Made by a program: the position numbers and the translations under genes
The notes under the pieces: generated by a model
What the model was told of the DNA's origin: nothing
Databases searched by the model: none
What the model saw: the letters and a program-made list of their open reading frames with translations, nothing else
Shown: in pieces, positions 1 to 57,645 of the stretch
How the letters are laid out: each line of letters starts with the position of its first letter
Numbering within the stretch: the stretch's first letter is position 1
Origin: a virus
Strand: one strand, 5' to 3'
Length of the DNA: 57,645 nucleotides
Virus record (IMG/VR): IMGVR_UViG_3300030451_004451

Positions 1-75
1 CGATTATGCCGTTAACATCAGGGATTCCGTTGATTGTGCTTGATTCTATTCTGACTAAATGCCATGTTGGTTCAG
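1..75. repeat. 75-bp exact terminal duplication, left copy (= 57571-57645); circular-assembly overlap or very short direct terminal repeat
   Basis: cgattatgccgttaacatcagggattccg...gccatgttggttcag occurs verbatim at both window ends; an ORF reads straight through the junction. Confidence 0.95.
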
Positions 76-121
76 TCTTTTGAATCAGGTTAATGTACCT
101 CCAAAGTTGTGACTCTTTCAA
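1..121 (-). CDS. VRR-NUC family nuclease, N-terminal segment (ORF crosses the circular junction and continues from 57570 downward)
   Basis: Minus-strand frame reads (TTG)KESQLWRYINLIQKTEPTWHLVRIESSTINGIPDVNGII and continues DGKEFWVELKANDAKNAGLSKFQINFHLKRIKLGGRCFIL. GIPD...ELK (PD-(D/E)XK) plus LSxxQ fit the VRR-NUC pattern. No in-frame ATG, so the start is uncertain (TTG at 121, or CTG at 88 after GGAGG 98-102). Confidence 0.6.
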   Translation of the reverse strand, partial: MKESQLWRYINLIQKTEPTWHLVRIESSTINGIPDVNGII

Positions 122-123
122 GG

Positions 124-279
124 CTAATCTTTTGTATTTTGTTTAGGTAAATATACGGACACAAAGGCACCACATTCGGGACAACTTAGATGAGTTTCCA
201 TACCATAATCATCGTTTTCATCTTCAATGTTATAATCATTTTCCCATTTTAATTCTGTATTACAATGCCAACAATTCAT
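124..279 (-). CDS. small zinc-ribbon protein (51 aa), below ORF-track size cutoff
   Basis: ATG at 279 overlaps the terS stop (ATGA). Translates MNCWHCNTELKWENDYNIEDENDDYGMETHLSCPECGAFVSVYLPKQNTKD with two CxxC pairs. Confidence 0.55.
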   Translation of the reverse strand: MNCWHCNTELKWENDYNIEDENDDYGMETHLSCPECGAFVSVYLPKQNTKD

Positions 280-3039: not shown

Positions 3040-3278
3040 TTTTCCTCCTTATTATACAAAAATTTATCCCAGTCATTATATCTATATTTTCTTACCCAGT
3101 CGCTAGCTTTATTACATTTTGCAGCACGAAACTTTCTAAATGGATATTCTTTTTCGTATACGTCTATCAGTTCTACTACTGCTGATTTACAATTAGTTAT
3201 TAATTGATTTGGGTAATGTTTCATATACAACCTATCATTGAGCTCAAACCATAACGTAACAATAAACCAATCAAACAT
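3036..3278 (-). CDS. hypothetical protein
   Basis: 80-aa ORF translationally coupled to neighbours. Confidence 0.55.
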   Translation of the reverse strand: MFDWFIVTLWFELNDRLYMKHYPNQLITNCKSAVVELIDVYEKEYPFRKFRAAKCNKASDWVRKYRYNDWDKFLYNKEEK

Positions 3279-3477
3279 CGATACCTAAACTTTCTCGAGC
3301 CTTTTGACGTATGATAAATGTTTTCTCATCATAACAGCCCCAACCTTGAATATCTATGTTATTTTCTTGCTCAAACATTTCAACTTTGTTCCAGATTTTA
3401 TTTACGTCACAAGATTCTAATTCGCCGTATACAATTTCTTCCCCACTAAATAGGAATAGTATCAGAATCCATTTCAT
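3271..3477 (-). CDS. hypothetical protein
   Basis: 68-aa ORF, N-terminal hydrophobic segment (MKWILILFLFSG), overlapping neighbours. Confidence 0.5.
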   Translation of the reverse strand: MKWILILFLFSGEEIVYGELESCDVNKIWNKVEMFEQENNIDIQGWGCYDEKTFIIRQKARESLGIDV

Positions 3478-5272: not shown

Positions 5273-7136
5273 CCTCACCAAAATCATTACCTAAGGCTAC
5301 ATCTACAACACTTGGAACTTTCAGTTTCACGCAACCCTCCATCTCCCTCTTAATTTTGTCCACATCACTTGAATCGCTAATGTTAAAACAAAGCTCATCA
5401 TGTATTTGTAGGATGGGTGTAAACCCAATCTGATCACAAGATACAATTGCCTGTTTTGTTTGATCTGCCGCACTGCCTTGAATTAATCTGTTTAGTGATT
5501 TATATGTAAAAGCTCTTTTTATGTTGCTAGCACCATATTTTGCAGAAGCATTCTCAAACTTCTCTGGATTATGAACACCAAAATCTTTTGGTTCCCACAT
5601 ATCAAATCTACACTTACGACCAAGTTTAGTTCTAATTACGCCCTCTGAATTTGCCTTTTGCATACATCTATCAGATAACATTTTTACAAAAGGTGCTTTT
5701 TTATTATACTTGTTTATTAATTCTTTAGCTTCATCAAAAGATACACCTAACATGTTAGCTAATTTATTTTTACCCATGCCATACATTAAACCTAACCCGA
5801 TAGTTTTCGCTTGCTTACGATCTATGCCGACAAGATCAGCGACAGTCTGATGAAAGTCCGCATCAGCATTAGTATACGCTTCGACTAATTCTTGCGAACC
5901 TTCATAACCCTCACCGATACTTGCAGCATAATGTACAACCAATCGAGGCTCTTGTTGAGAATAATCAAAAGAGCCCCATTGACAGCCTTCTTCAGGGAGA
6001 AAAAGGCCTCTGATCAAAGGACCGAAATCCTTATTCCTTGCAGGTAGTTGCTGTAAATTAGGGTTCGACATACTTAATCGACCTGATACAGTACCACCAG
6101 TATCCGTGCGCAGTTGATTTATTTCTCCATGAATACGACCTTTGTATTCGTATTTCATAATTGAATTTAAAAAAGTGTTGTGAAATTTGTTTATCTCCCT
6201 AGCTTCAACAATTAATTTAGAAATTTCTTGATTAGAATTCATTAACCAATTTTGTGTAAAACTAGGTTCTCCTGACTTTGGTGTTTTTGGATAATCAATA
6301 CCTAATTTATCAAAGGCAAATCCTATTTGTCTGGCTGCCCAAATATCAATTTCCTGACCTACTAAATTTTTTATATGCAGATTAACTTTCTGTTCACGAG
6401 CTTCAAAATCTTTCTTTAATTTTTCAGCGCGTTCAATATCAACTCGTATACCTTTTTTACGCATACGTATTAAAATCGGCAGCAAGTTTTTTTCTAAACC
6501 CCAAATTGTTTCTAAATTTTGTTGAAATATTTCATGCTTAAATCTTTGCCACAAAAGGTACGTGAGCCGTGCATCTTGTTCCGCGTAATAACCAACATGT
6601 TCAGCTGGCAGCTTCCACATCTCCATCTTAGGATCAACACCATGTGCCTTAGCAGCTTCTAGCAAATCGGTTTCAGCTTTTAACTCTCCTATATAATCTT
6701 TGGCTAAAGCATTTAGTTTATAAGTATATCTATTCTCATCTATCAGGGCGCCGGCTACCATGGTATCAATTATCTCACCTTTAACATCGATTCCATACGC
6801 TTGCAGCCATCCCACATCATACTGCGCATTATGAAAGATTTTAGCGCAAGGTAAACTGCATATATCATGCATATATTTAAGGACTTGCTCTTTTATTAAA
6901 TTACCACCACCAAAGTGACCAAAGGGATAATAACCTTGCCAACCTTCAGTAGCTACAGCAAACCCAATTATTTCACCAGCTCCTGTAGCCCAACCTGCTC
7001 CAAGACCTTTTGATATACCATCATCTCTTGTCTCTAAGTCTATTGCAATTTCTTTAGCTTCAGACAAATCTTTATAATCACTTGGTGCTGACCAAATGTG
7101 TTTTTTAAAATTAAAAGTGAGTTGTAAGCTAGTCAT
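5265..7136 (-). CDS. polA: family A DNA polymerase with 3'-5' exonuclease domain
   Basis: Exo motifs AIDLETRDDG, NAQYDVGWL, YYAEQDARL. Pol motif A FDYSQQEPRLVVHYA, motif B RKQAKTIGLGLMYGMG, motif C LQIHDELCF, plus SMSNPNLQQLP. Confidence 0.95.
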   Translation of the reverse strand: MTSLQLTFNFKKHIWSAPSDYKDLSEAKEIAIDLETRDDGISKGLGAGWATGAGEIIGFAVATEGWQGYYPFGHFGGGNLIKEQVLKYMHDICSLPCAKIFHNAQYDVGWLQAYGIDVKGEIIDTMVAGALIDENRYTYKLNALAKDYIGELKAETDLLEAAKAHGVDPKMEMWKLPAEHVGYYAEQDARLTYLLWQRFKHEIFQQNLETIWGLEKNLLPILIRMRKKGIRVDIERAEKLKKDFEAREQKVNLHIKNLVGQEIDIWAARQIGFAFDKLGIDYPKTPKSGEPSFTQNWLMNSNQEISKLIVEAREINKFHNTFLNSIMKYEYKGRIHGEINQLRTDTGGTVSGRLSMSNPNLQQLPARNKDFGPLIRGLFLPEEGCQWGSFDYSQQEPRLVVHYAASIGEGYEGSQELVEAYTNADADFHQTVADLVGIDRKQAKTIGLGLMYGMGKNKLANMLGVSFDEAKELINKYNKKAPFVKMLSDRCMQKANSEGVIRTKLGRKCRFDMWEPKDFGVHNPEKFENASAKYGASNIKRAFTYKSLNRLIQGSAADQTKQAIVSCDQIGFTPILQIHDELCFNISDSSDVDKIKREMEGCVKLKVPSVVDVALGNDFGEAT

Positions 7137-13420: not shown

Positions 13421-13491
13421 AAAAAACTTGCATTAAATAAATAAACTATTATTATAAACACTTGCGACAGGCTTATCTCAATAAGCAAAAA

Positions 13492-13525
13492 GGGGATTTG
13501 TTTTATTTCAAATCCCCTTTTTTTT
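13492..13525. terminator. bidirectional rho-independent terminator between convergent SNF2 and exonuclease genes
   Basis: GGGGATTTG (13492-13500) loop ttttattt CAAATCCCC (13509-13517) then T8; A5 on the other side serves the minus strand. The stem overlaps the exonuclease stop codon. Confidence 0.75.
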
Positions 13526-42488: not shown

Positions 42489-42515
42489 AAAAAAAAAGGG
42501 GACTCGTAAGTCCCC
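42489..42515 (-). terminator. rho-independent terminator after the major capsid gene
   Basis: Minus strand: GGGGACT-tacg-AGTCCCC followed by T9 (plus-strand A-run 42489-42497, stem 42498-42515), 27 nt after the capsid stop. Confidence 0.85.
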
Positions 42516-42541
42516 TTCTTTAATTTATTTCACCACTGAAA

Positions 42542-50663: not shown

Positions 50664-52847
50664 TTACCATTTAAAAATGTCTACGACTAGCCCACCTGTT
50701 TTCTTATACAGTTTAAATCTACTGTTTCTTAAATTATCATTAATCTTTATAGCGTATGTAGTAAAATAATTTCTTGAATCGCCAGGATCCATTCGTTCAA
50801 CAGTAGCACCGCTTCCAAAACTATATCTTTGAAAATATTCCTGAGCTTCGCTTGCTGTTCTGAAAGCTGCTTCCACTGACACATCATCATCTTTGTCATA
50901 TAACATGTGTTGGTTTTTAAGTTTTGAAATTATTTTATATGGTTTAGCAGGATTACTTTTAGCCACTTTGATTAATTTATATTCTGTGTCGTATTGTTTA
51001 GCAATTTCTTTAAAAACTTTTGCCATAATTGAGTCTGCCTTTTCATTTGTTTGTACAGCCCTGTCTACACCCTCAGGTGGATTTTTTATTGCAGCTTTGA
51101 CACCCTTCATACCCATTTTGCCTGTGGGTGTTCCATAAAATTCAAAGTCTCCGACATACCCTTGTAGTTTAGGTCCAAATGATCTGTCACTCATTTTTGT
51201 TGCCATTGCTAAAGTTGTGGGTTGTCCTGCTACCCACTCAACTTTTTCATCAAGTTTTGGTGCTTGTTTAATAATACCTTTTACAAAGAAACGTGCATAG
51301 TTTTCTCTGTCTTTTTTACCACCCGTAATTAGAGGCATGTAATCATAACTTTCACGATTGGTCACGTTTGCATCTTTCATAGCTTGAAAGGTCTCAACAC
51401 GTGCTTTTGCATCTGTTACTTCTTTTCTTATTTTTTGTGGATCAAGTTTATAAAAGTTTTGTGGGTCTGTAACAAAGTCTTGTAATCTTTTTTGGTTTTG
51501 TGCTACATCATCAGCTGCCTCATCAAGAATTGCATCTATTTCTTGTCTGCCCATAGGCATTGCTCTTTGTTTCTGTGCACGTATTGAATTTCTAAATTGT
51601 TTAGATACGTCTGATTGTATCTCTCCAATTAAGGCAACTTTTTTATCATCTACCTGATTTGTGGTTGGGTTCAGCATATTGTTTATAGAGTAACGCGCGT
51701 GTCCTATGGTGTTTTTATTACCTAAACCTGAATGACCCACACCTTGTAAGTCTCGTGGTAATTTGTCTATGTCCACAAATGTTTCAACATAGTGATCCGA
51801 TCCTGTAATCCTGTAACTACCTTGACTCGCATAAGAAGGCATTTGCAAATTAGACATATTCATCAATCCTTGAACTTCTTTATGTGCCTGTTGATACGCT
51901 TTGATTTTGTTTGGTAAGTCAGAGGGTACATCTTTACTAAAACTCTTTTCAACCAGGTTTCTAATTCCCGTTACTAAAGGACTTCCTTTAGAAAAATTTG
52001 TTAAATTTTCAATCCTCACGCCTTGTGCTGCAACAGCAAAATTAGAGCTACTGCTATATTTTTGCGCGTCTTTTAAACCATCTTCTAAGTATTCTACGGG
52101 TATAGATGCTTTTTTTAAAACCTCTGGTTTAGTTTGTCCAAGTTTAATAACATCTTCATAAATACTTACTTTTAATTTATTCAAATCATTAATCTCATCC
52201 TGAATTTTAGGATCAATTTGTTTAACTGTGTACTTAAAATTGTTGAGAGGGTTTTCTCTTATAAATCTAAATAACGTTTGTTTTGAAATAGATTGATTAG
52301 CATCAGCTGCTGCTTTTAATAAACCACCAACAGCTTTACCTGAATCATCAAATCTGAGTATGTTTGTATCTTCTAACTCATCCCTTGTAGTATTTCGCAC
52401 CACATTTTGGTAACCAGGCATTTTATATTTACCATGATCCTTTATAGGATTTAAAACATTCATCCAATACTGTGCAGGCATTTTTTTTACATTTGGATCT
52501 GTAGCTACAATGTCGTACAACGATGAACCATAATCACCTGCTCCACCTGGTTGATTTATTTTCATAGCAAAATCACCATTACTCAGAGGAGAGTTTGTAG
52601 CAACCTTTTGTTGACGCTTGTAAAGATCAACTAATTCTGGATCTTCAACTTCAGCACGACCTCTGGCTGAAAGGGTCGTGAGCCCTTGTTCTTGTTTACT
52701 GATTGCTGGTAAAGTAGTCTGAGTTATCGGATCAACGTCCATGGTAACTTCTTCAGCTACTTCAGTTTGTTTTGGTTTTGTGCCGTAGAATTCATCTACA
52801 GCAGCTTTACCTTTTTTAAGTAATGAAATTATTCCTTTTATCGCCAT
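50664..52847 (-). CDS. large hypothetical protein between terL and portal (727 aa)
   Basis: Stop of terL overlaps its ATG; no catalytic motif recognised with confidence; ALIGEIQSDVSKQF segment; C-terminus YKKTGGLVVDIFKW. Confidence 0.55.
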   Translation of the reverse strand: MAIKGIISLLKKGKAAVDEFYGTKPKQTEVAEEVTMDVDPITQTTLPAISKQEQGLTTLSARGRAEVEDPELVDLYKRQQKVATNSPLSNGDFAMKINQPGGAGDYGSSLYDIVATDPNVKKMPAQYWMNVLNPIKDHGKYKMPGYQNVVRNTTRDELEDTNILRFDDSGKAVGGLLKAAADANQSISKQTLFRFIRENPLNNFKYTVKQIDPKIQDEINDLNKLKVSIYEDVIKLGQTKPEVLKKASIPVEYLEDGLKDAQKYSSSSNFAVAAQGVRIENLTNFSKGSPLVTGIRNLVEKSFSKDVPSDLPNKIKAYQQAHKEVQGLMNMSNLQMPSYASQGSYRITGSDHYVETFVDIDKLPRDLQGVGHSGLGNKNTIGHARYSINNMLNPTTNQVDDKKVALIGEIQSDVSKQFRNSIRAQKQRAMPMGRQEIDAILDEAADDVAQNQKRLQDFVTDPQNFYKLDPQKIRKEVTDAKARVETFQAMKDANVTNRESYDYMPLITGGKKDRENYARFFVKGIIKQAPKLDEKVEWVAGQPTTLAMATKMSDRSFGPKLQGYVGDFEFYGTPTGKMGMKGVKAAIKNPPEGVDRAVQTNEKADSIMAKVFKEIAKQYDTEYKLIKVAKSNPAKPYKIISKLKNQHMLYDKDDDVSVEAAFRTASEAQEYFQRYSFGSGATVERMDPGDSRNYFTTYAIKINDNLRNSRFKLYKKTGGLVVDIFKW

Positions 52848-54358
52848 TAGTAATACCTGTATTCTTTTGGAGGTCTATCCTCGTTATCTACATAGTCTGA
52901 GTATAACGCAACAAAGTTGCCTTGACGATACCTTAGTAACGCTTGTGTTGTTGAATCAACAAAATCATCATTAGCACCATTTGGAAACGCAGCACATTCG
53001 TCAATAACATCATACGCAAATTTTTCACCAAATGGAAACCATACTTGTCCTGATTCAAAAATTGGTGCCACAACATTTACGCGCGTATGTTTATCATTAC
53101 CACGTGTCGGAACAAAAGGAACAACAGGTATACCCATTTTTCTAAACTCTTGTGTCAAAGGTTCACCACTCGCTTTCTGCTCGATAACAATTGTTTCAGG
53201 TTCCCAATACTTGTATGTCGACATCGCTACAGCCTTTAATTCTGGAAAATCAAATTTACCCCGTAAGGCATCAAGTAAAATTATATGTGGTGAGCCTCCT
53301 TCTTCTGGAAAAAAAATACCCCACGTTGTAATTGCAGAATAGTCAGCTGTTTCTTTTTTACTAAACGCTGTATCATAACTCTGTATCACATGCATCAAAT
53401 TAGGTATGTGCCCTTTCCATGCTTGCCACCATTCTCGTTTTATAATTGCACCTTCCTCACTGGTAGGATTCTGCATATACTGTGCAGACCAGTTTCGTAT
53501 AGGCACAGATGCTTTGATCTTTTCTAATTCTTCTAAGTTCCAATACTCAGGCCAGACTGGGTTCCCTGAGTCGAGGATCGCTGGAAATGAAATTTGACGC
53601 CATGTATCTGCTTTAGGTTCCGTTTGAGCCTTCAATAATCTACCTGTTAAATCATCTTCTGCCCACCTTGTCATTACAAGCAAAATTGAGCCTCCAGGTT
53701 GTAAACGTTGTCTTGGTCCGGAGGTATACCAATCAAAAGCACGTTCCATAGCAGAATCAGACATTGAGTCTTGTTCCGTGTGTGGGTCATCAATAATCAG
53801 TAAATCCGCACCACGACCCGTGATGGACGCACCGACGCCAGCTGCATAGTATTCGCCACCATGATTAGTTTCCCATCTACCTTTTGCTTTGGAGTCCTCC
53901 CTGAGTTTTACGTCACCGAATATTTGTTTGTACTCTTTAGAATCAATTATGTTTCGAACCTTAGAACCGAATCTTACTGCAAGTTCTGTGTTGTGAGACA
54001 CTTGCATTATTTTCATTTTCGGGTACTTACCGATGATCCATGCTGGAAAATATACGGAAGCAAATTCAGATTTAGTATGTCTAGGGGGCATATTTATAAT
54101 GAGCCTCCCTTTTTTTTCATAAGCTATGTTTGTAAACTCATTAGCGATTATCTGGTGATGTCCCCATTTATTCTTGTCTTTTTCTTTTCTACATATAAAG
54201 TCTGGCCATACCTCTTGAACAAAATATAAAAAATTATCCTGACAAAGTTTTATGTGCTGTATCCACAGCTGTTCTACTTTGAGCCTCAACTTTTCAGTAG
54301 GCATTACTGATGGTTTCATGGGCGATATTATAACTAAAGTTTTGTGTTCTGTATACAT
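52847..54358 (-). CDS. terL: terminase large subunit
   Basis: Walker A-like NMPPRHTKSEF, Walker B LLIIDDPH, nuclease half with SYDTAFSKKETADYSAITTWG and PNGANDDFVDSTTQAL. Confidence 0.9.
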   Translation of the reverse strand: MYTEHKTLVIISPMKPSVMPTEKLRLKVEQLWIQHIKLCQDNFLYFVQEVWPDFICRKEKDKNKWGHHQIIANEFTNIAYEKKGRLIINMPPRHTKSEFASVYFPAWIIGKYPKMKIMQVSHNTELAVRFGSKVRNIIDSKEYKQIFGDVKLREDSKAKGRWETNHGGEYYAAGVGASITGRGADLLIIDDPHTEQDSMSDSAMERAFDWYTSGPRQRLQPGGSILLVMTRWAEDDLTGRLLKAQTEPKADTWRQISFPAILDSGNPVWPEYWNLEELEKIKASVPIRNWSAQYMQNPTSEEGAIIKREWWQAWKGHIPNLMHVIQSYDTAFSKKETADYSAITTWGIFFPEEGGSPHIILLDALRGKFDFPELKAVAMSTYKYWEPETIVIEQKASGEPLTQEFRKMGIPVVPFVPTRGNDKHTRVNVVAPIFESGQVWFPFGEKFAYDVIDECAAFPNGANDDFVDSTTQALLRYRQGNFVALYSDYVDNEDRPPKEYRYY

Positions 54359-54988: not shown

Positions 54989-55328
54989 TATTAACCTCAA
55001 CAATTAAATCTTTTCTCACAGAATTTTTTTTGTGATACTTTGATTTACTTTTTTCGCTAGTTAATATTTCTGGAATTACTTTTGCAATTTCAGACTGATT
55101 AATGGAATAACTATTAGATAGTTTTAAAACAATATCAACATTTCCAATAGTCTTATGATGTAAAGATTTTTTAGAATTTTCTACATCAACATTAAGAATG
55201 TCATTAATGATAGTATTCATTAATTCTTTTCTTACTTTAGTTAATTGTGAAATTTTATTCACAGTCAACAAATATTTCTTAAGAGTTTGTTCCTCTTTAG
55301 AAGTTTTTATTTTTGTAATTTTTTTCAT
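54981..55328 (-). CDS. hypothetical protein (accessory island; start trimmed to ATG 55328)
   Basis: AAGGAAGGtacacaaATG gives MKKITKIKTSKEEQTLKKYL... (115 aa). Confidence 0.5.
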   Translation of the reverse strand: MKKITKIKTSKEEQTLKKYLLTVNKISQLTKVRKELMNTIINDILNVDVENSKKSLHHKTIGNVDIVLKLSNSYSINQSEIAKVIPEILTSEKSKSKYHKKNSVRKDLIVEVNND

Positions 55329-55440
55329 TTGTGTACCTTCCTTAAAATGAGTTATTATTACTCTTTCAGTATACATTTTTTTTAAAGAAAAAAAAACAAT
55401 TTTTTTACTTCATTTTTATTTTTTTTAATAAAAATTTTTT

Positions 55441-55524
55441 CGCCTGGCGCCCGCGGCGAACTTTTACGAAAGTCCCGAACCCGTTTATTTTTGGCACAAA
55501 CGGGAACGGGACAGGGGAAGGAAC
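55441..55524. repeat. GC-rich repeat module A (with 15-bp-stem hairpin 55472-55512)
   Basis: CGCCTGGCGCCCGCGGCG, ACGAAAGTCCC, and GTCCCGAACCCGTTT-loop-AAACGGGAACGGGAC (13/15 paired). On the sense strand the hairpin ends GGGAC-TTT. Confidence 0.8.
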
Positions 55525-55527
55525 TGT

Positions 55528-55731
55528 TTAATCTGTGACTATGTTTACTTGTTTATCCATAGGGAATAATTTTCTTAATCTTTTAAATGAATGATAGACA
55601 TGATTTTTTGGCTTGCCCTCCTCTTGCCAATGTCGTTCTTCTTCCTTGCTATACATACTGAGTATGTATAGCAAGTCATTCATTTCTTGTAAGTTTAGTT
55701 CTACGAATGTATCACCTTTTGTTTTTAACAT
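55528..55731 (-). CDS. hypothetical protein (accessory island)
   Basis: 67-aa ORF overlapping the 3' end of the 198-aa ORF by 7 nt. Confidence 0.5.
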   Translation of the reverse strand: MLKTKGDTFVELNLQEMNDLLYILSMYSKEEERHWQEEGKPKNHVYHSFKRLRKLFPMDKQVNIVTD

Positions 55732-56321
55732 ATTCTAAAACCTCCTGAGTACCTCGCAAATTTTATGAACTCCTTGACATTTTCTACATCGAATGGATAG
55801 CTATCGTCCCAACTTCTAGTAGCATAGACTTCTTGCCATTGTGTCTTATATGGTTCAGGATAATCTCGTGGCACAAAGTTATCATCAGGAAAATTTCTTT
55901 TGACTGCGTCTTGAACTTCTTTCAATCTCGCCTCCATTTTTTTATTATGCTCTCTTGCAATTTTACTATTCTTCTCGATAGATTTCTGCAAGTCATCACA
56001 ATATCCAGATTTAATTAAATCGCTTAACTTGTTAGCAATTTTAATCGCTTGTACCTTAGTGTATGTAGTGCCATCATTATGGTGCAAACTCTTTCTTTGT
56101 TCTTCAGAAAGATATTCGCCACATTTATCGTGTATAAGTTCTGCTAATGGTCTCCACCACCACACATTATTACGGAAATAAACACCAGGGTTTTCTTCTT
56201 CAAATTTTTGGCTAGCTTTGAAGAAATTATCTTTTTCTTCTTCGGTTGCTGTATTCCAATTAATTTGTTTTGGTCTTTTGCTTTTAAGTTTTGGCTGTAA
56301 GCCGTATATATCAAATCCCAT
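55725..56321 (-). CDS. hypothetical protein (accessory island, 198 aa)
   Basis: Own promoter and SD (AAAGGAcgaaaaaATG); YFRNNVWWWRPLAELIHDKCG; no family recognised. Confidence 0.6.
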   Translation of the reverse strand: MGFDIYGLQPKLKSKRPKQINWNTATEEEKDNFFKASQKFEEENPGVYFRNNVWWWRPLAELIHDKCGEYLSEEQRKSLHHNDGTTYTKVQAIKIANKLSDLIKSGYCDDLQKSIEKNSKIAREHNKKMEARLKEVQDAVKRNFPDDNFVPRDYPEPYKTQWQEVYATRSWDDSYPFDVENVKEFIKFARYSGGFRIC

Positions 56322-56363
56322 TTTTTCGTCCTTTCTAATGAGTTAATAAAATGGTTCATTATT

Positions 56364-56391
56364 ATTATAACAATTTTTTACATATTCGCAA
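56364..56391 (-). promoter_or_regulatory. sigma70-type promoter of the 198-aa cassette
   Basis: Minus strand: TTGCGA (56391-56386) -N16- TATAAT (56369-56364) with TG two bases upstream of the -10. Confidence 0.6.
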
Positions 56392-56424
56392 AACTTTTTT
56401 TGTCCTATTTAATTTTTTTGTACA

Positions 56425-56531
56425 CCAGTCCATCCGCCATCACGGCGCTGCGCTGCAGGGCCGTTGAAACTACAAATACGGTCCAAGATCCTTACGAAAC
56501 GAGAAACGGGAAACGGCATGTCAAAAGATCC
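56425..56531. repeat. GC-rich repeat module B
   Basis: GGCGCTGCGCTGCAGGGCCGTTGAAAC (56444-56470); TTACGAAACGAGAAACGGGAAACGG flanked by direct AAGATCC copies (56485-56491, 56525-56531). Confidence 0.75.
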
Positions 56532-56573
56532 AGCATAACCAAATGAGTATGCCCACACATAAATAAGACATTA

Positions 56574-56604
56574 CTCGTGGCATTAAAACAAATAACACCA
56601 CGAG
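56574..56604 (-). other. stem-loop after the 98-aa gene
   Basis: CTCGTGG (56574-56580) / CCACGAG (56598-56604), 17-nt loop; weak U-tract on the sense strand. Confidence 0.35.
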
Positions 56605-56622
56605 GAACATAAAGTAATACAA

Positions 56623-56919
56623 TTAATGTACTCCTTGACTTGCAGGAAAGTTTACCACTTTCTTTTCAAACTTTTCTTCTGCCTCTTTTTCATCATCTAG
56701 CTTTTGAGTAATCATACGTACCATAGAAATAATTGTATCGCTAGCCGCTTCTCTAGATGGAGCGCATTCGAAAACACCCTCAAGTGCCGCGAACAACCCT
56801 CCTTTGATTAAAGCTTCAGGACTATACCTTTCATGCATCTCGCCATACTTAACCATCATTTCTACGTATGCCTTGTGCATTTCTTCAGCTTTGAATTTTG
56901 TTGATTTTTTTTTCTTCAT
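56623..56919 (-). CDS. hypothetical protein (accessory island, 98 aa)
   Basis: Own strong promoter; helical, charged; no family recognised. Confidence 0.6.
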   Translation of the reverse strand: MKKKKSTKFKAEEMHKAYVEMMVKYGEMHERYSPEALIKGGLFAALEGVFECAPSREAASDTIISMVRMITQKLDDEKEAEEKFEKKVVNFPASQGVH

Positions 56920-56963
56920 ATAAACACCTATATTATAAAAGTTAAAGTTAATATTACAACCCT

Positions 56964-56991
56964 AGTATATAAGAGCATGTGCTGCTGTCAA
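56964..56991 (-). promoter_or_regulatory. sigma70-type promoter of the 98-aa cassette
   Basis: Minus strand: TTGACA (56991-56986) -N16- TATACT (56969-56964). Confidence 0.7.
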
Positions 56992-57101
56992 TAAAATTCT
57001 ACAGGCTGCGCCTGTTTTTTGTGAGCTGGCCGCGCACGAAAAAAGTCCCCAATGACTGCGTGTTTCAGGACACTGTTTCATCACGCACCGCCGATGGATT
57101 T

Positions 57102-57123
57102 AAAAAAGCCCAGAAAACTGGGC
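57102..57123 (-). terminator. rho-independent terminator downstream of VRR-NUC
   Basis: Minus strand: GCCCAG-tttt-CTGGGC followed by T6. Confidence 0.7.
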
Positions 57124-57283
57124 TTCTTGTGTGATGTTTTCCCCGCTGCGCGCAGCGGAGAAACGAATATATAAAAAGTCCCAGTTTTTCGGTATTTTGA
57201 AACGGGAATCCAGATCCGAGAAGCTGTGTCCTGGATCAGGACTGGATGGCAGGAAATCAAAAAACCCAAGAAAACTGCATGTT

Positions 57284-57645
57284 TCAAGAGGTAGCTGATG
57301 GATCTAATTCCGCTGCGCCCGCGGGGTCAGCTGCTAACAACAACAAATCACGAATGTGTTTTTTGTGAAACGGGAAACGGGAAACGGGAATCGGGATTCC
57401 AGGCTCACGAACCACGAGAAGTTCGAGGCACCTCTTCGAGGGGGACGCATTCAGAATAAAACATCTGCCACCAAGTTTGATACGTTTCAAATGAAAGTTA
57501 ATCTGAAATTTAGAAAGCCCTGCATTCTTAGCATCATTTGCTTTTAATTCTACCCAAAATTCTTTACCATCGATTATGCCGTTAACATCAGGGATTCCGT
57601 TGATTGTGCTTGATTCTATTCTGACTAAATGCCATGTTGGTTCAG
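57284..57645 (-). CDS. VRR-NUC family nuclease, C-terminal segment (57571-57645 duplicates 1-75; full ORF is 121..1 + 57570..57284, 135 aa)
   Basis: ...GIPDVNGIIDGKEFWVELKANDAKNAGLSKFQINFHLKRIKLGGRCFILNASPSKRCLELLVV then REPGIPIPVSRFPFHKKHIRDLLLLAADPAGAAELDPSATS, which is encoded by GC-rich module C3. Confidence 0.6.
   Translation of the reverse strand, partial: EPTWHLVRIESSTINGIPDVNGIIDGKEFWVELKANDAKNAGLSKFQINFHLKRIKLGGRCFILNASPSKRCLELLVVREPGIPIPVSRFPFHKKHIRDLLLLAADPAGAAELDPSATS
57367..57396 (+). repeat. tandem heptamer GAAACGG x3.5 forming a G3N4G3N4G3N4G3 quadruplex motif
   Basis: gaaacGGGaaacGGGaaacGGGaatcGGGa; G-runs at 57372, 57379, 57386 and 57393. Confidence 0.9.
57571..57645. repeat. 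75-bp exact terminal duplication, right copy (= 1-75)
   Basis: Identical to bases 1-75. Confidence 0.95.

Follow-up and report, generated by a model that had tools for sequence, protein, structure and literature searches.

We analysed the 57,645-nucleotide (nt) IMG/VR virus record IMGVR_UViG_3300030451_004451 (the window, by which we mean this whole stretch of DNA), in which an earlier note, made by a model from the letters alone, had pointed to a family of five GC-rich repeat modules, A, B, C1, C2 and C3, in the interval between terS and terL. The first 75 bases of the window equal the last 75 (1-75 = 57571-57645), so that the genome is either circular or was circularly permuted when assembled, and its effective length is 57,570 bp. 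TerL, encoded at 52847-54358 on the minus strand, is 74% identical to TerL of Pelagibacter phage HTVC023P, and the genome is that of an HTVC023P-type pelagiphage, a phage of SAR11; at the DNA level, a search of GenBank phages gave no close or distant match except for a 43-nt coding match in HTVC023P. The minus strand, which carries nearly all genes and is referred to as the sense strand, runs from TerS (776-276, minus strand; Terminase_2 and PHROG terS matches, both weak) through a 51-aa zinc-ribbon open reading frame (ORF) and a nuclease ORF that spans the circular junction to modules C3, C2 and C1, followed by ORF98 and a peptide gene, module B, ORF198 and ORF67, module A, three small ORFs and TerL. 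On the closed circle, the assignment of the modules to the terS-terL interval is right. The upstream region holds replication genes (SNF2 and UvrD helicases, primase and Pol A).

The five segments stand out by base composition as had been described, with GC fractions of 0.58 (A), 0.54 (B), 0.55 (C1), 0.44 (C2) and 0.48 (C3) against 0.354 for the genome. Three ordered boxes had been proposed for them, a GC palindrome (box i), an ACGAAA..GTCCC box (box ii) and a heptad box (box iii), all in a single orientation. The heptad GAAACGGGAA occurs in six exact copies, all within 55441-57400; allowing one mismatch gives ten matches in the window, a number that none of 100 shuffles reached, and on the sense strand TCCCGTT is found seven times in 57.6 kb, every copy inside a module. 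Tandem Repeats Finder reported heptamer arrays of 3.0 copies (56496-56516) and 4.3 copies (57367-57396), so that box iii is real, far above chance and amplified in C3 as claimed, but C1 has no heptad. GC palindromes are present in all five segments, as described; the word CGCTGCGC with one mismatch is not enriched genome-wide (nine found, 5.75 expected), and six of the nine lie within modules. Box ii is clear in A, C1 and C2 but not in B and C3. Together the window copies have in common just 7-32-nt stretches of 60-90% identity, and because only A and C2 fold better than their shuffles, what the modules share is mainly a set of sequence motifs in fixed order and orientation, with no common fold.

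Along the sense strand, C3 opens with the heptad array TCCCGATTCCCGTTTCCCGTTTCCCGTTTC (57367..57396, 4.3 copies), to which arrays of two to four heptads after the nuclease gene are orthologous in all window-clade relatives. It continues with the GC box CCCCGCGGGCGCAGCGG (57310..57326), which lies within AGCTGA/TCAGCT arms and has related '..GCGC(GC)AGCGG(GG)AA' boxes in relatives, and with a degenerate hairpin-plus-T-run element, GAAACATGCAGTTTTCTTGGGTTTTTT (57259..57283), a direct repeat (D3/D12) shared with C1 and C2 and homologous to a hairpin, CCYAG-UUUU-CUGGG with a U-run, that is conserved in relatives. Module C2 has a lone heptad, TTCCCGTTTC (57199..57208), and a GC palindrome, GTTTCTCCGCTGCGCGCAGCGGGGAAAAC (57136..57164), whose arms are the heptad-like GTTTCTCCG and its complement CGGGGAAAAC. 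A custom scan placed a canonical intrinsic terminator, AGCCCAGTTTTCTGGGCT + TTTTT (AGCCCAGUUUUCUGGGCU + U5 in RNA), at 57124-57107 with the T-run reaching 57102; the built-in terminator scan had missed it because an upstream A-tract can pair with the T-run. The heptad-free C1 (57001..57090) consists of GGGGAC + T6 (57049-57036) and a hairpin, ACAGGCGCAGCCTGT (57015-57001), directly upstream of a promoter. In module B the heptad array GTTTCCCGTTTCTCGTTTC (56496..56514) begins 6 nt past the TGA of the peptide gene and is followed by a GC box, GGCCCTGCAGCGCAGCGCC...GGATGGACTGG (56425..56461), without a U-run and without a GGGAAA tail. Module A has a 6+9-bp hairpin with UUUCGU behind it (55472..55512), and the 5′ arm consists of two hexad/heptad repeats, GTCCCGTTCCCGTTT; next come the GC palindrome CGCCGCGGGCGCCAGGCG (55441..55458), an A/T-rich stretch and a putative extended -10 element, TGTATACT (55375-55368), which may mark a downstream promoter. 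All these features are on the minus strand.

The modules bracket two small cassettes, also on the minus strand. The first (56521..56919) comprises ORF98 (56623-56919; family F8 in relatives) and an unannotated gene (56521-56622) for a hydrophobic peptide of about 29-33 aa, MFLVVLFVLMPRVMSYLCVGILIWLCWIF, with a conserved central P-R; this PR peptide gene lies directly upstream of module B in relatives as well, where it falls into families F7, F11 and F14. The second (55528..56321) comprises ORF67 and ORF198, whose family counts at least 393 IMG/VR relatives; a Protein Data Bank sequence search with ORF198 and with the nuclease gave no informative match. The two near-consensus promoters that had been proposed upstream of these cassettes were borne out. 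That of the ORF98 cassette (56964..56991, minus strand) is of the sigma-70 type, TTGACA-16-TATACT, matches the consensus at 11 of 12 positions and has TTGACA promoters at the same place in relatives; that of the ORF198 cassette (56364..56391, minus strand), TTGCGA-16-TATAAT with a TG, matches at 10 of 12 and is conserved in relatives as TTGCAA/TTGACT..TATAAT. Sigma-70-type promoters thus come after modules both in the window and in relatives.

To follow the family beyond the window, we searched IMG/VR for exact matches to two heptads, which gave about 20 low-GC contigs (0.32-0.37) with the same arrangement, the remaining matches being chance, and we used the proteins of the ORF198 family as an anchor, which gave at least 393 encoding loci. 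Eighty of these loci (numbered L001 and upwards) were fetched and oriented with their genes on the plus strand. In these loci the ORF198 homologue lies between GC islands, and CCCGTTTC is always on the sense strand; 578 distinct GC islands contain 218 sense-strand copies of TCCCGTT and a single copy of its complement, so that the proposed single orientation holds in relatives as it does for the seven copies in the window. A specific gapped module pattern was found in 21 metagenome stretches, including Tara and other ocean contigs and some chance matches from soil, and the same pattern run against 185,579 species genomes of bacteria and archaea gave three chance-level matches, in GC-rich bacteria. 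The cultured phages HTVC023P and HTVC027P are without the GC-rich family and have AT-richer intergenic repeat families of their own in the same interval. In HTVC023P and its close relatives, a family of the form ..TTGAGAWTA..CGAAAAnTTTT.. follows terS and the nuclease gene (L001, which is HTVC023P, 3137-3329 and 5652-6068; L182, 3160-3400; L184, 5780-6020), and by position these repeats correspond to the GC-rich modules. Intergenic repeats go unmentioned in the main comparative paper on the phage group. The modules therefore form a real, lineage-specific family of strictly one-directional composite intergenic elements, conserved in dozens of uncultured relatives within a subset of HTVC023P-type pelagiphages and apparently undescribed.

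Comparison of these loci revealed a general anatomy. Direct C-rich repeats begin 0-20 nt past the upstream stop codon or inside the last nuclease codons, and in the window clade modules open with one to four copies of the heptad. The repeat is TTTCCCG in the window clade, the hexad TTCCCG in a second clade (L121, L125, L129 and L153), and GTCCCG(CC) (L137 and L141) or TCTCG (L130 and L148) in others, with one variant used for all modules of a genome. A 25-50-nt spacer follows, which in many units contains the small hairpin CCYAG-UUUU-CUGGG and then a U-run; in other units, the 5′ arm of a hairpin with a U-run is supplied by the last repeats. Next is a 20-35-nt GC box composed of CCAG, CTGG, GCTG, CAGC and GCGC words, with semi-conserved blocks (..AGCTGGCC.. 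and ..GCGC(GC)AGCGGGGAAA in the window clade, GGATCGCACGGGTGGGAAA in the hexad clade), and a G-rich box closes the module; it usually reads ..GCGCAGCGGGGAAA, and its GGGAAA tail complements the repeat. Beyond it lies either the next unit (behind the nuclease gene, tandem runs of up to five occur) or an A-rich stretch with a TTGACA/TTGCAA...TATAAT promoter. Window modules C3, C2, B and A match this plan, and C1 is a promoter-proximal remainder. We also observed GANTC (GAATC, GATTC or GACTC) at the start of many arrays, as CTGGAnTCCCG (for example, at 57390-57400 and in relatives); GANTC is the CcrM methylation motif of alphaproteobacteria, and its presence there may be coincidence.

The tandem C-rich repeats raise the idea that heptads form G-quadruplexes (G3N4 x 4) on the template (plus) strand, or i-motifs, that stall polymerases. 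The plus strand of C3 reads GGGAAACGGGAAACGGGAATCGGG, and the first array after the nuclease gene most often has exactly four heptads (10 of 17 mapped loci, the window counted); four G3 tracts with loops of 1-7 nt are accordingly found on the plus strand of C3 and in the four-heptad relatives. They are not found in A, B, C2 or the TCTCG clades: most arrays supply only two or three tracts, the TCTCG variants of window module B and of whole clades break the G-tracts, and the G after CCC is conserved although a quadruplex does not require it. We consider this explanation barely plausible.

The earlier note had offered a second reading of the palindromes, as solitary CRISPR repeats whose transcripts would decoy host Cas proteins; the concept is that of RNA anti-CRISPRs (Racrs), which are solitary CRISPR repeat units (PMC10651486). 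The plus strand of C2, TTTTCCCCGCTGCGCGCAGCGGAGAAAC, superficially resembles a type I-E repeat, such as that of E. coli, in having a GC hairpin followed by AAAC. The conserved part of the module is, however, the heptad and not the hairpin; the palindromes vary between units and between genomes, as do the module interiors in general, and the matches in bacterial genomes were at chance level. Rfam CRISPR-DR models gave no match to a module even at E <= 10, a CRISPR-repeat database not having been searched directly, and SAR11 rarely carries CRISPR-Cas (PMC6811365), with one bathypelagic report (PMC7029224). The decoy reading was therefore rejected and is almost certainly wrong. Mobile repeats of the miniature inverted-repeat transposable element or repetitive extragenic palindromic type were likewise rejected, as the motifs are confined to one interval of about 2 kb in 57.6 kb and are missing from bacterial genomes; no transposase was found among the ORFs scanned, and target-site duplications were not examined in detail.

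Folding of the window modules against dinucleotide shuffles confirmed part of the proposal that boxes ii and iii pair into hairpins. Module A forms a hairpin with arms 55472-55486 and 55498-55512 that are 87% complementary (sense z = -3.9, antisense z = -2.0), and C2 folds well (-44.2 kcal/mol, z = -4.9); B, C1 and C3 did not exceed their shuffles. The further suggestion that the hairpins look like terminators stands for C2, with its canonical terminator, and partly for A, where a strong hairpin is followed by a weak U-run, but C1 joins GGGGAC + U6 to a weak stem, and B and C3 have no terminator. The C3 array is about the eighth strongest C>G window genome-wide, behind coding regions, which makes this test for Rho-utilization (rut) sites non-discriminating. 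Elsewhere in the genome, strong bidirectional terminators with A-/T-run flanks lie at 42493-42520 and 13488-13521 (stems GGGGAC..GTCCCC and GGGGATTTG..CAAATCCCC) and have the GGGAC/GTCCC arm motif in common with the modules.

In relatives, the small hairpin CCYAG-UUUU-CUGGG with its U-run is paired in 84% of alignment cells, compared with 33-63% once the 3′ partner is shifted along; UA<->CG exchanges occur, eight changes are double-sided (a number reached by 21 of 500 shuffles), and 23 cells are G.U against 4 that are A.C. The pairing, the double-sided changes and the excess of G.U over A.C indicate an RNA hairpin on the sense strand, and this hairpin with its U-run is the only element with comparative structural support. 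Terminators adjoining arrays in relatives number 29 on the sense strand and 6 on the antisense strand. In a strict and crude test, whose count includes some false positives from coding sequence, a hairpin with a U-run was seen in 23 of 195 distinct arrays, and antisense cases numbered 6 among all 236 arrays. Heptads or hexads make up the 5′ arm of such a hairpin in 19 distinct arrays, as they do in window module A, whose design recurs with full U-runs in L037, L113, L121, L129, L146 and L151.

Beyond the small hairpin, RNAfold and RNAalifold predict a helix between the heptad and the GGGGAAA tail that closes most units; both sides are nearly invariant, and the helix is consequently neither supported nor excluded. 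RNAalifold on three unit classes gave nothing further, the first unit had no consensus fold, and local folds of 40 GC boxes showed no shared structure, so that the folding and covariation analysis that had been called for upheld one conserved hairpin and no other consensus structure. These results bear on the idea that the modules encode a stable structured non-coding RNA or a ribozyme, transcribed on either strand. The GC enrichment in an AT-rich genome, the folding of A and C2 above shuffles and the closing helix would fit such an RNA. Against it, Rfam at gathering scores gave no match in the window and 20 relatives (a scan of 55300-57645 at E <= 10 gave weak, unrelated matches only), B, C1 and C3 are unstructured and the interiors are highly variable; ARAGORN found no tRNA or transfer-messenger RNA in the same window and 20 relatives. 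We regard a structured RNA of this kind as highly improbable.

The first module after terS overlaps a gene. The PD-(D/E)xK-like nuclease ORF (57284-57570 + 1-121, minus strand) starts at 121, crosses the circular junction and ends at a TGA at 57286-57284; it carries a GIPD...ELK motif, and its match to PHROG 2165/93 covers residues 1-81 only. The C-terminal approximately 40 codons are encoded by module C3, the frame passing through the C3 heptads to the stop at 57284. The statement that coding cannot explain the segments thus needs qualifying for C3; A and B lie after stop codons. In all window-clade relatives the nuclease ORF extends into the first unit and terminates shortly before the second array, and synonymous third-position changes support coding through 'REPG(I/L)P'; past this point, changes between close relatives compensate the small hairpins and are not conservative for the protein. 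Coding was rejected as the explanation of the modules, because the variable sites keep small hairpins and not amino acids, the heptad copy number varies and A and B follow stops. The internal units of tandem runs repeat the nuclease gene's own 3′ end (CGTGAnnCTGGAnTCCCGTTTCCCG). Where the nuclease gene is relocated downstream of ORF198 (L166, L167, L169, L182-184, L187, L189 and HTVC023P, in which it is gp25), long non-coding repeat regions or GC islands follow the nuclease there and the flanks of ORF198 are plain; in HTVC023P, 417 nt of AT-rich repeats lie after gp25. The repeat array may be functionally coupled to the PD-(D/E)xK nuclease gene that precedes it.

This otherwise unexplained association keeps alive, at low probability, the notion that the modules act at the DNA level as a packaging or nuclease site, a region like pac or cos to which TerS would bind, with cutting near the repeats. 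Their position between terS and terL, together with the GC islands or tandem repeats that follow the nuclease gene wherever it sits, would suit such a site. The modules nevertheless occupy three separate intergenic positions spread across roughly 2 kb, every one of them linked to a stop codon and a promoter, their G.U-tolerant hairpins and U-runs point to RNA, and a 7-bp period is ill-suited to duplex binding. The contig ends say nothing about the true termini, since the overlap lies in the nuclease ORF and is an assembly overlap. Furthermore, upstream of terS an iteron array, TTCCTAGTTTT (928-1010), qualifies as a pac candidate no less well, and we judge a packaging site at the modules very unlikely. 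The iterons, four to five copies of the motif (CTAGGAAAA on the gene-sense strand), lie in the long non-coding region upstream of terS and are kept as CTAGGAAAA repeats in HTVC023P (L001, 2084-2629); the motif resembles the loop and one arm of the conserved module hairpin (CCTAGTTTTCT), and the array may serve as pac site, as origin or as a site for a regulator.

We mapped 17 loci, the window included, which placed repeat runs at three conserved positions: after the nuclease gene, after the PR peptide gene, and after the ORF198-family gene, which may be joined by one extra gene. Gene content between the first and second of these positions varies among relatives: it is the ORF98 family, the 'NTYNGWTNYETW' family, the latter preceded by one or two extra small genes, or nothing at all. 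The homology between L033 and L008 breaks off within the last C unit, in its GC box, and picks up again in that of module B; L033 and L102 are 90.7% identical over 2.4 kb, yet differ in their last C unit. Window module B resembles a unit at position A of L037 (unit 3932), with which it has TTTGTAGTTTCAAC..CTGCAGC in common, and the number of units varies among near-identical genomes. The comparison of the terS-terL interval among relatives thus confirmed that cassette content differs and that replacement breakpoints fall in GC boxes, and the breakpoints, the swapped units and the repeated nuclease 3′ end fit duplication and exchange at modules. In HTVC027P, temporal expression classes are mosaic and gp33, a member of the ORF198 family, is in an expression class of its own (PMC12753301), which is consistent with independently transcribed cassettes. 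HTVC027P (L193) also has tandem heptamers, (TCAAGCY)n, at 5772-5951 and 6093-6200, upstream of and overlapping the TTGACA -35 elements of two promoters, one of which drives gp33.

Such turnover could also have produced the modules as a functionless by-product, through repeated duplication of a junction made of nuclease 3′ end, terminator and promoter, homogenized by gene conversion. The copying of the nuclease 3′ end in internal units, the variable unit number and the similar units at different positions are what this origin would leave behind. Yet the motifs and their strict orientation persist across lineages whose ORF198 proteins are just 40-60% identical, a GC content of 44-58% is held in a 35% GC genome, and the hairpin shows compensatory and G.U changes. 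Motif persistence, GC maintenance and compensatory change imply selection and make the by-product explanation quite unlikely.

Taken together, we favour, tentatively and at a little under an even chance, the reading that the modules are cis-acting boundary elements of transcription units that double as recombination scaffolds. This reading builds on the anatomy, position, orientation and conservation of the modules, on the sense-strand hairpin with its U-run, on the promoters and on the variable cassettes with breakpoints in GC boxes. In the proposed mechanism, the modules would close transcription units in the hypervariable terS-terL interval by acting in cis on the transcript, stopping or structuring the 3′ end of one unit and insulating it from the next promoter, such that host RNA polymerase could express small accessory cassettes independently. 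As dispersed stretches of similar sequence, the modules would also be places of cassette turnover, that is, sites of duplication, loss and exchange like those of T4-type phages. Termination or insulation probably takes place at some modules, recombination may do so, and the heptad and G-rich box may have a role beyond that of hairpin arms; all three proposals derive from sequence comparison. In function, the modules most likely elaborate on an element of a known kind, the terminator/promoter boundary of a cassette.

Several observations weigh against this reading. The terminator at 57124-57107 is the sole canonical one among the five window modules, B (z = +0.9), C1 (z = -1.2) and C3 fold no better than dinucleotide shuffles, and 172 of the 195 distinct arrays in relatives have no detectable hairpin with a U-run within 75 nt. 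The closing helix is predicted with almost no covariation. Just upstream of terL, at approximately 54510-54473 on the minus strand, the phage uses a plain, bidirectional and repeat-free intrinsic terminator, AAAACGGCAUG...CAUGCCGUUUUUUUUU (AAAACGGCATG-N10-CATGCCGTTTTTTTTT), which indicates that termination needs neither heptads nor GC boxes. The heptad and the 18-20-nt GC-box blocks are strongly conserved with clade-specific variants, which termination alone does not explain, and some gene gains and losses fall inside units, away from modules. Termination is accordingly part of the module role and not the whole story.

The strict, clade-specific conservation of mostly unpaired heptads suggests an additional reader that binds single strands. 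An unlikely alternative is that the heptad arrays, and perhaps the G-rich boxes, are platforms for a sequence-specific single-strand-binding factor of phage or host. Bound to the transcript inside the 5′ arm of a terminator or a little upstream of it, this factor would toggle all cassette ends between termination and read-through by the logic of TRAP, HutP or Bgl-type regulators and would coordinate entry into the terL late operon. Direct repeats with a 5-7-nt period, unpaired in most modules, are typical of binders of RNA or single-stranded DNA and not of duplex binders; the same variant appears at all modules of a genome and differs by clade; in the 19 arrays whose last repeats form the terminator 5′ arm, extra upstream copies are unpaired; and the arrays are restricted to one regulatory region of the genome. 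On the other hand, gene conversion could also give uniformity within a genome, many arrays have no terminator to regulate, and no candidate factor was found, the neighbouring proteins being without RNA-binding annotation. The double CxxC zinc-ribbon ORF between terS and the nuclease gene (51 aa, 124-279, minus strand; a weak Pfam Zn_ribbon_Brz match below cutoff) is missing in relatives such as L033. In a more specific form, which we hold to be distinctly unlikely, the heptads would be cis sites of a lineage-specific factor that reads (UCCCGUU)n in RNA or single-stranded DNA right after stop codons, at the 5′ arm of terminator hairpins or within it; such a factor would switch all cassette ends jointly between insulation and read-through into the late packaging and structural operon, and would co-evolve with the repeat variant of its clade, be it heptad, hexad or pentad.

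Whichever reader the heptads may have, the modules provide a concrete, searchable signature of accessory-cassette boundaries in these genomes. As cis-acting boundary elements, they would be a starting point for learning how a phage that has no RNA polymerase of its own divides up transcription in a host equipped with very few regulators; they are also a plausible substrate of the cassette turnover behind much of the gene-content diversity of the group. If the heptads are factor-binding sites, they would constitute a new cis-regulatory code in one of Earth's commonest virus-host systems; if the modules are only elaborated terminators, they are a useful annotation feature and not a discovery.

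Among known systems, the integron attC site is similar in that one element stands at the 3′ end of each cassette in a single orientation, with conserved, mutually complementary ends (GTTTCCCG ... CGGGGAAAC) around a variable centre. Unlike integron cassettes, the cassettes here have their own promoters, the module ends are not RYYYAAC/GTTRRRY, and hairpins that tolerate G.U, together with U-runs, speak for RNA and not for a folded DNA strand; an integrase, a transposase and a reverse transcriptase were all missing among the 20 ORFs scanned, which are not all ORFs of the window, and an attC identity was rejected. The arrays also recall the (G/U)AG repeats bound by TRAP and the UAG repeats bound by HutP, which are likewise short direct repeats in the transcript, upstream of or overlapping the 5′ arm of a terminator; the module motif, by contrast, is CCCG-based, its arrays stand at the 3′ ends of units and not in 5′ leaders, many are without a terminator, and a binder is only a candidate. 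Morons of lambdoid and other phages are promoter-gene-terminator units inserted between conserved genes, and the organization seen here is the same, with small promoted accessory genes between conserved genes and a terminator-type closure, except that moron ends have no common repeat family whereas one strand-specific motif set marks all unit ends here.

The closest likeness is to the promoter/stem-loop cassettes (PeSLs) of T4-like myoviruses, which the earlier note had named (PMC2839356, PMC4122927). PeSLs are likewise composites of a terminator-like element and a promoter beside small ORFs of unknown function in a hyperplastic region, present in several copies per genome in one orientation, and indels or replacements between relatives end in the repeats. 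The shared logic is borne out: promoters follow the modules, hairpins occur, and variable small ORFs have their breakpoints at the motif (the 17-locus map; L033/L008 and L033/L102). Membership in the PeSL family is not: the copies within a genome share short motifs of 7-20 nt only (stretches of 7-32 nt at 60-90% identity, not near-identical ones long enough for homologous recombination), whereas PeSLs are near-identical conserved composites. Stem-loop and promoter are coupled in part of the modules, through a canonical terminator in C2 alone of the five and through a strong hairpin with a weak U-run in A. The modules are further set apart from PeSLs, as these have been described, by their setting in a podovirus-type pelagiphage with host-type sigma-70 promoters (TTGACA/TATAAT), by their much greater length (80-440 nt), GC-richness and frequent tandem multiplication, by a real terminator in some units only, and by C-rich heptad arrays and a G-rich box that have no counterpart in PeSLs.

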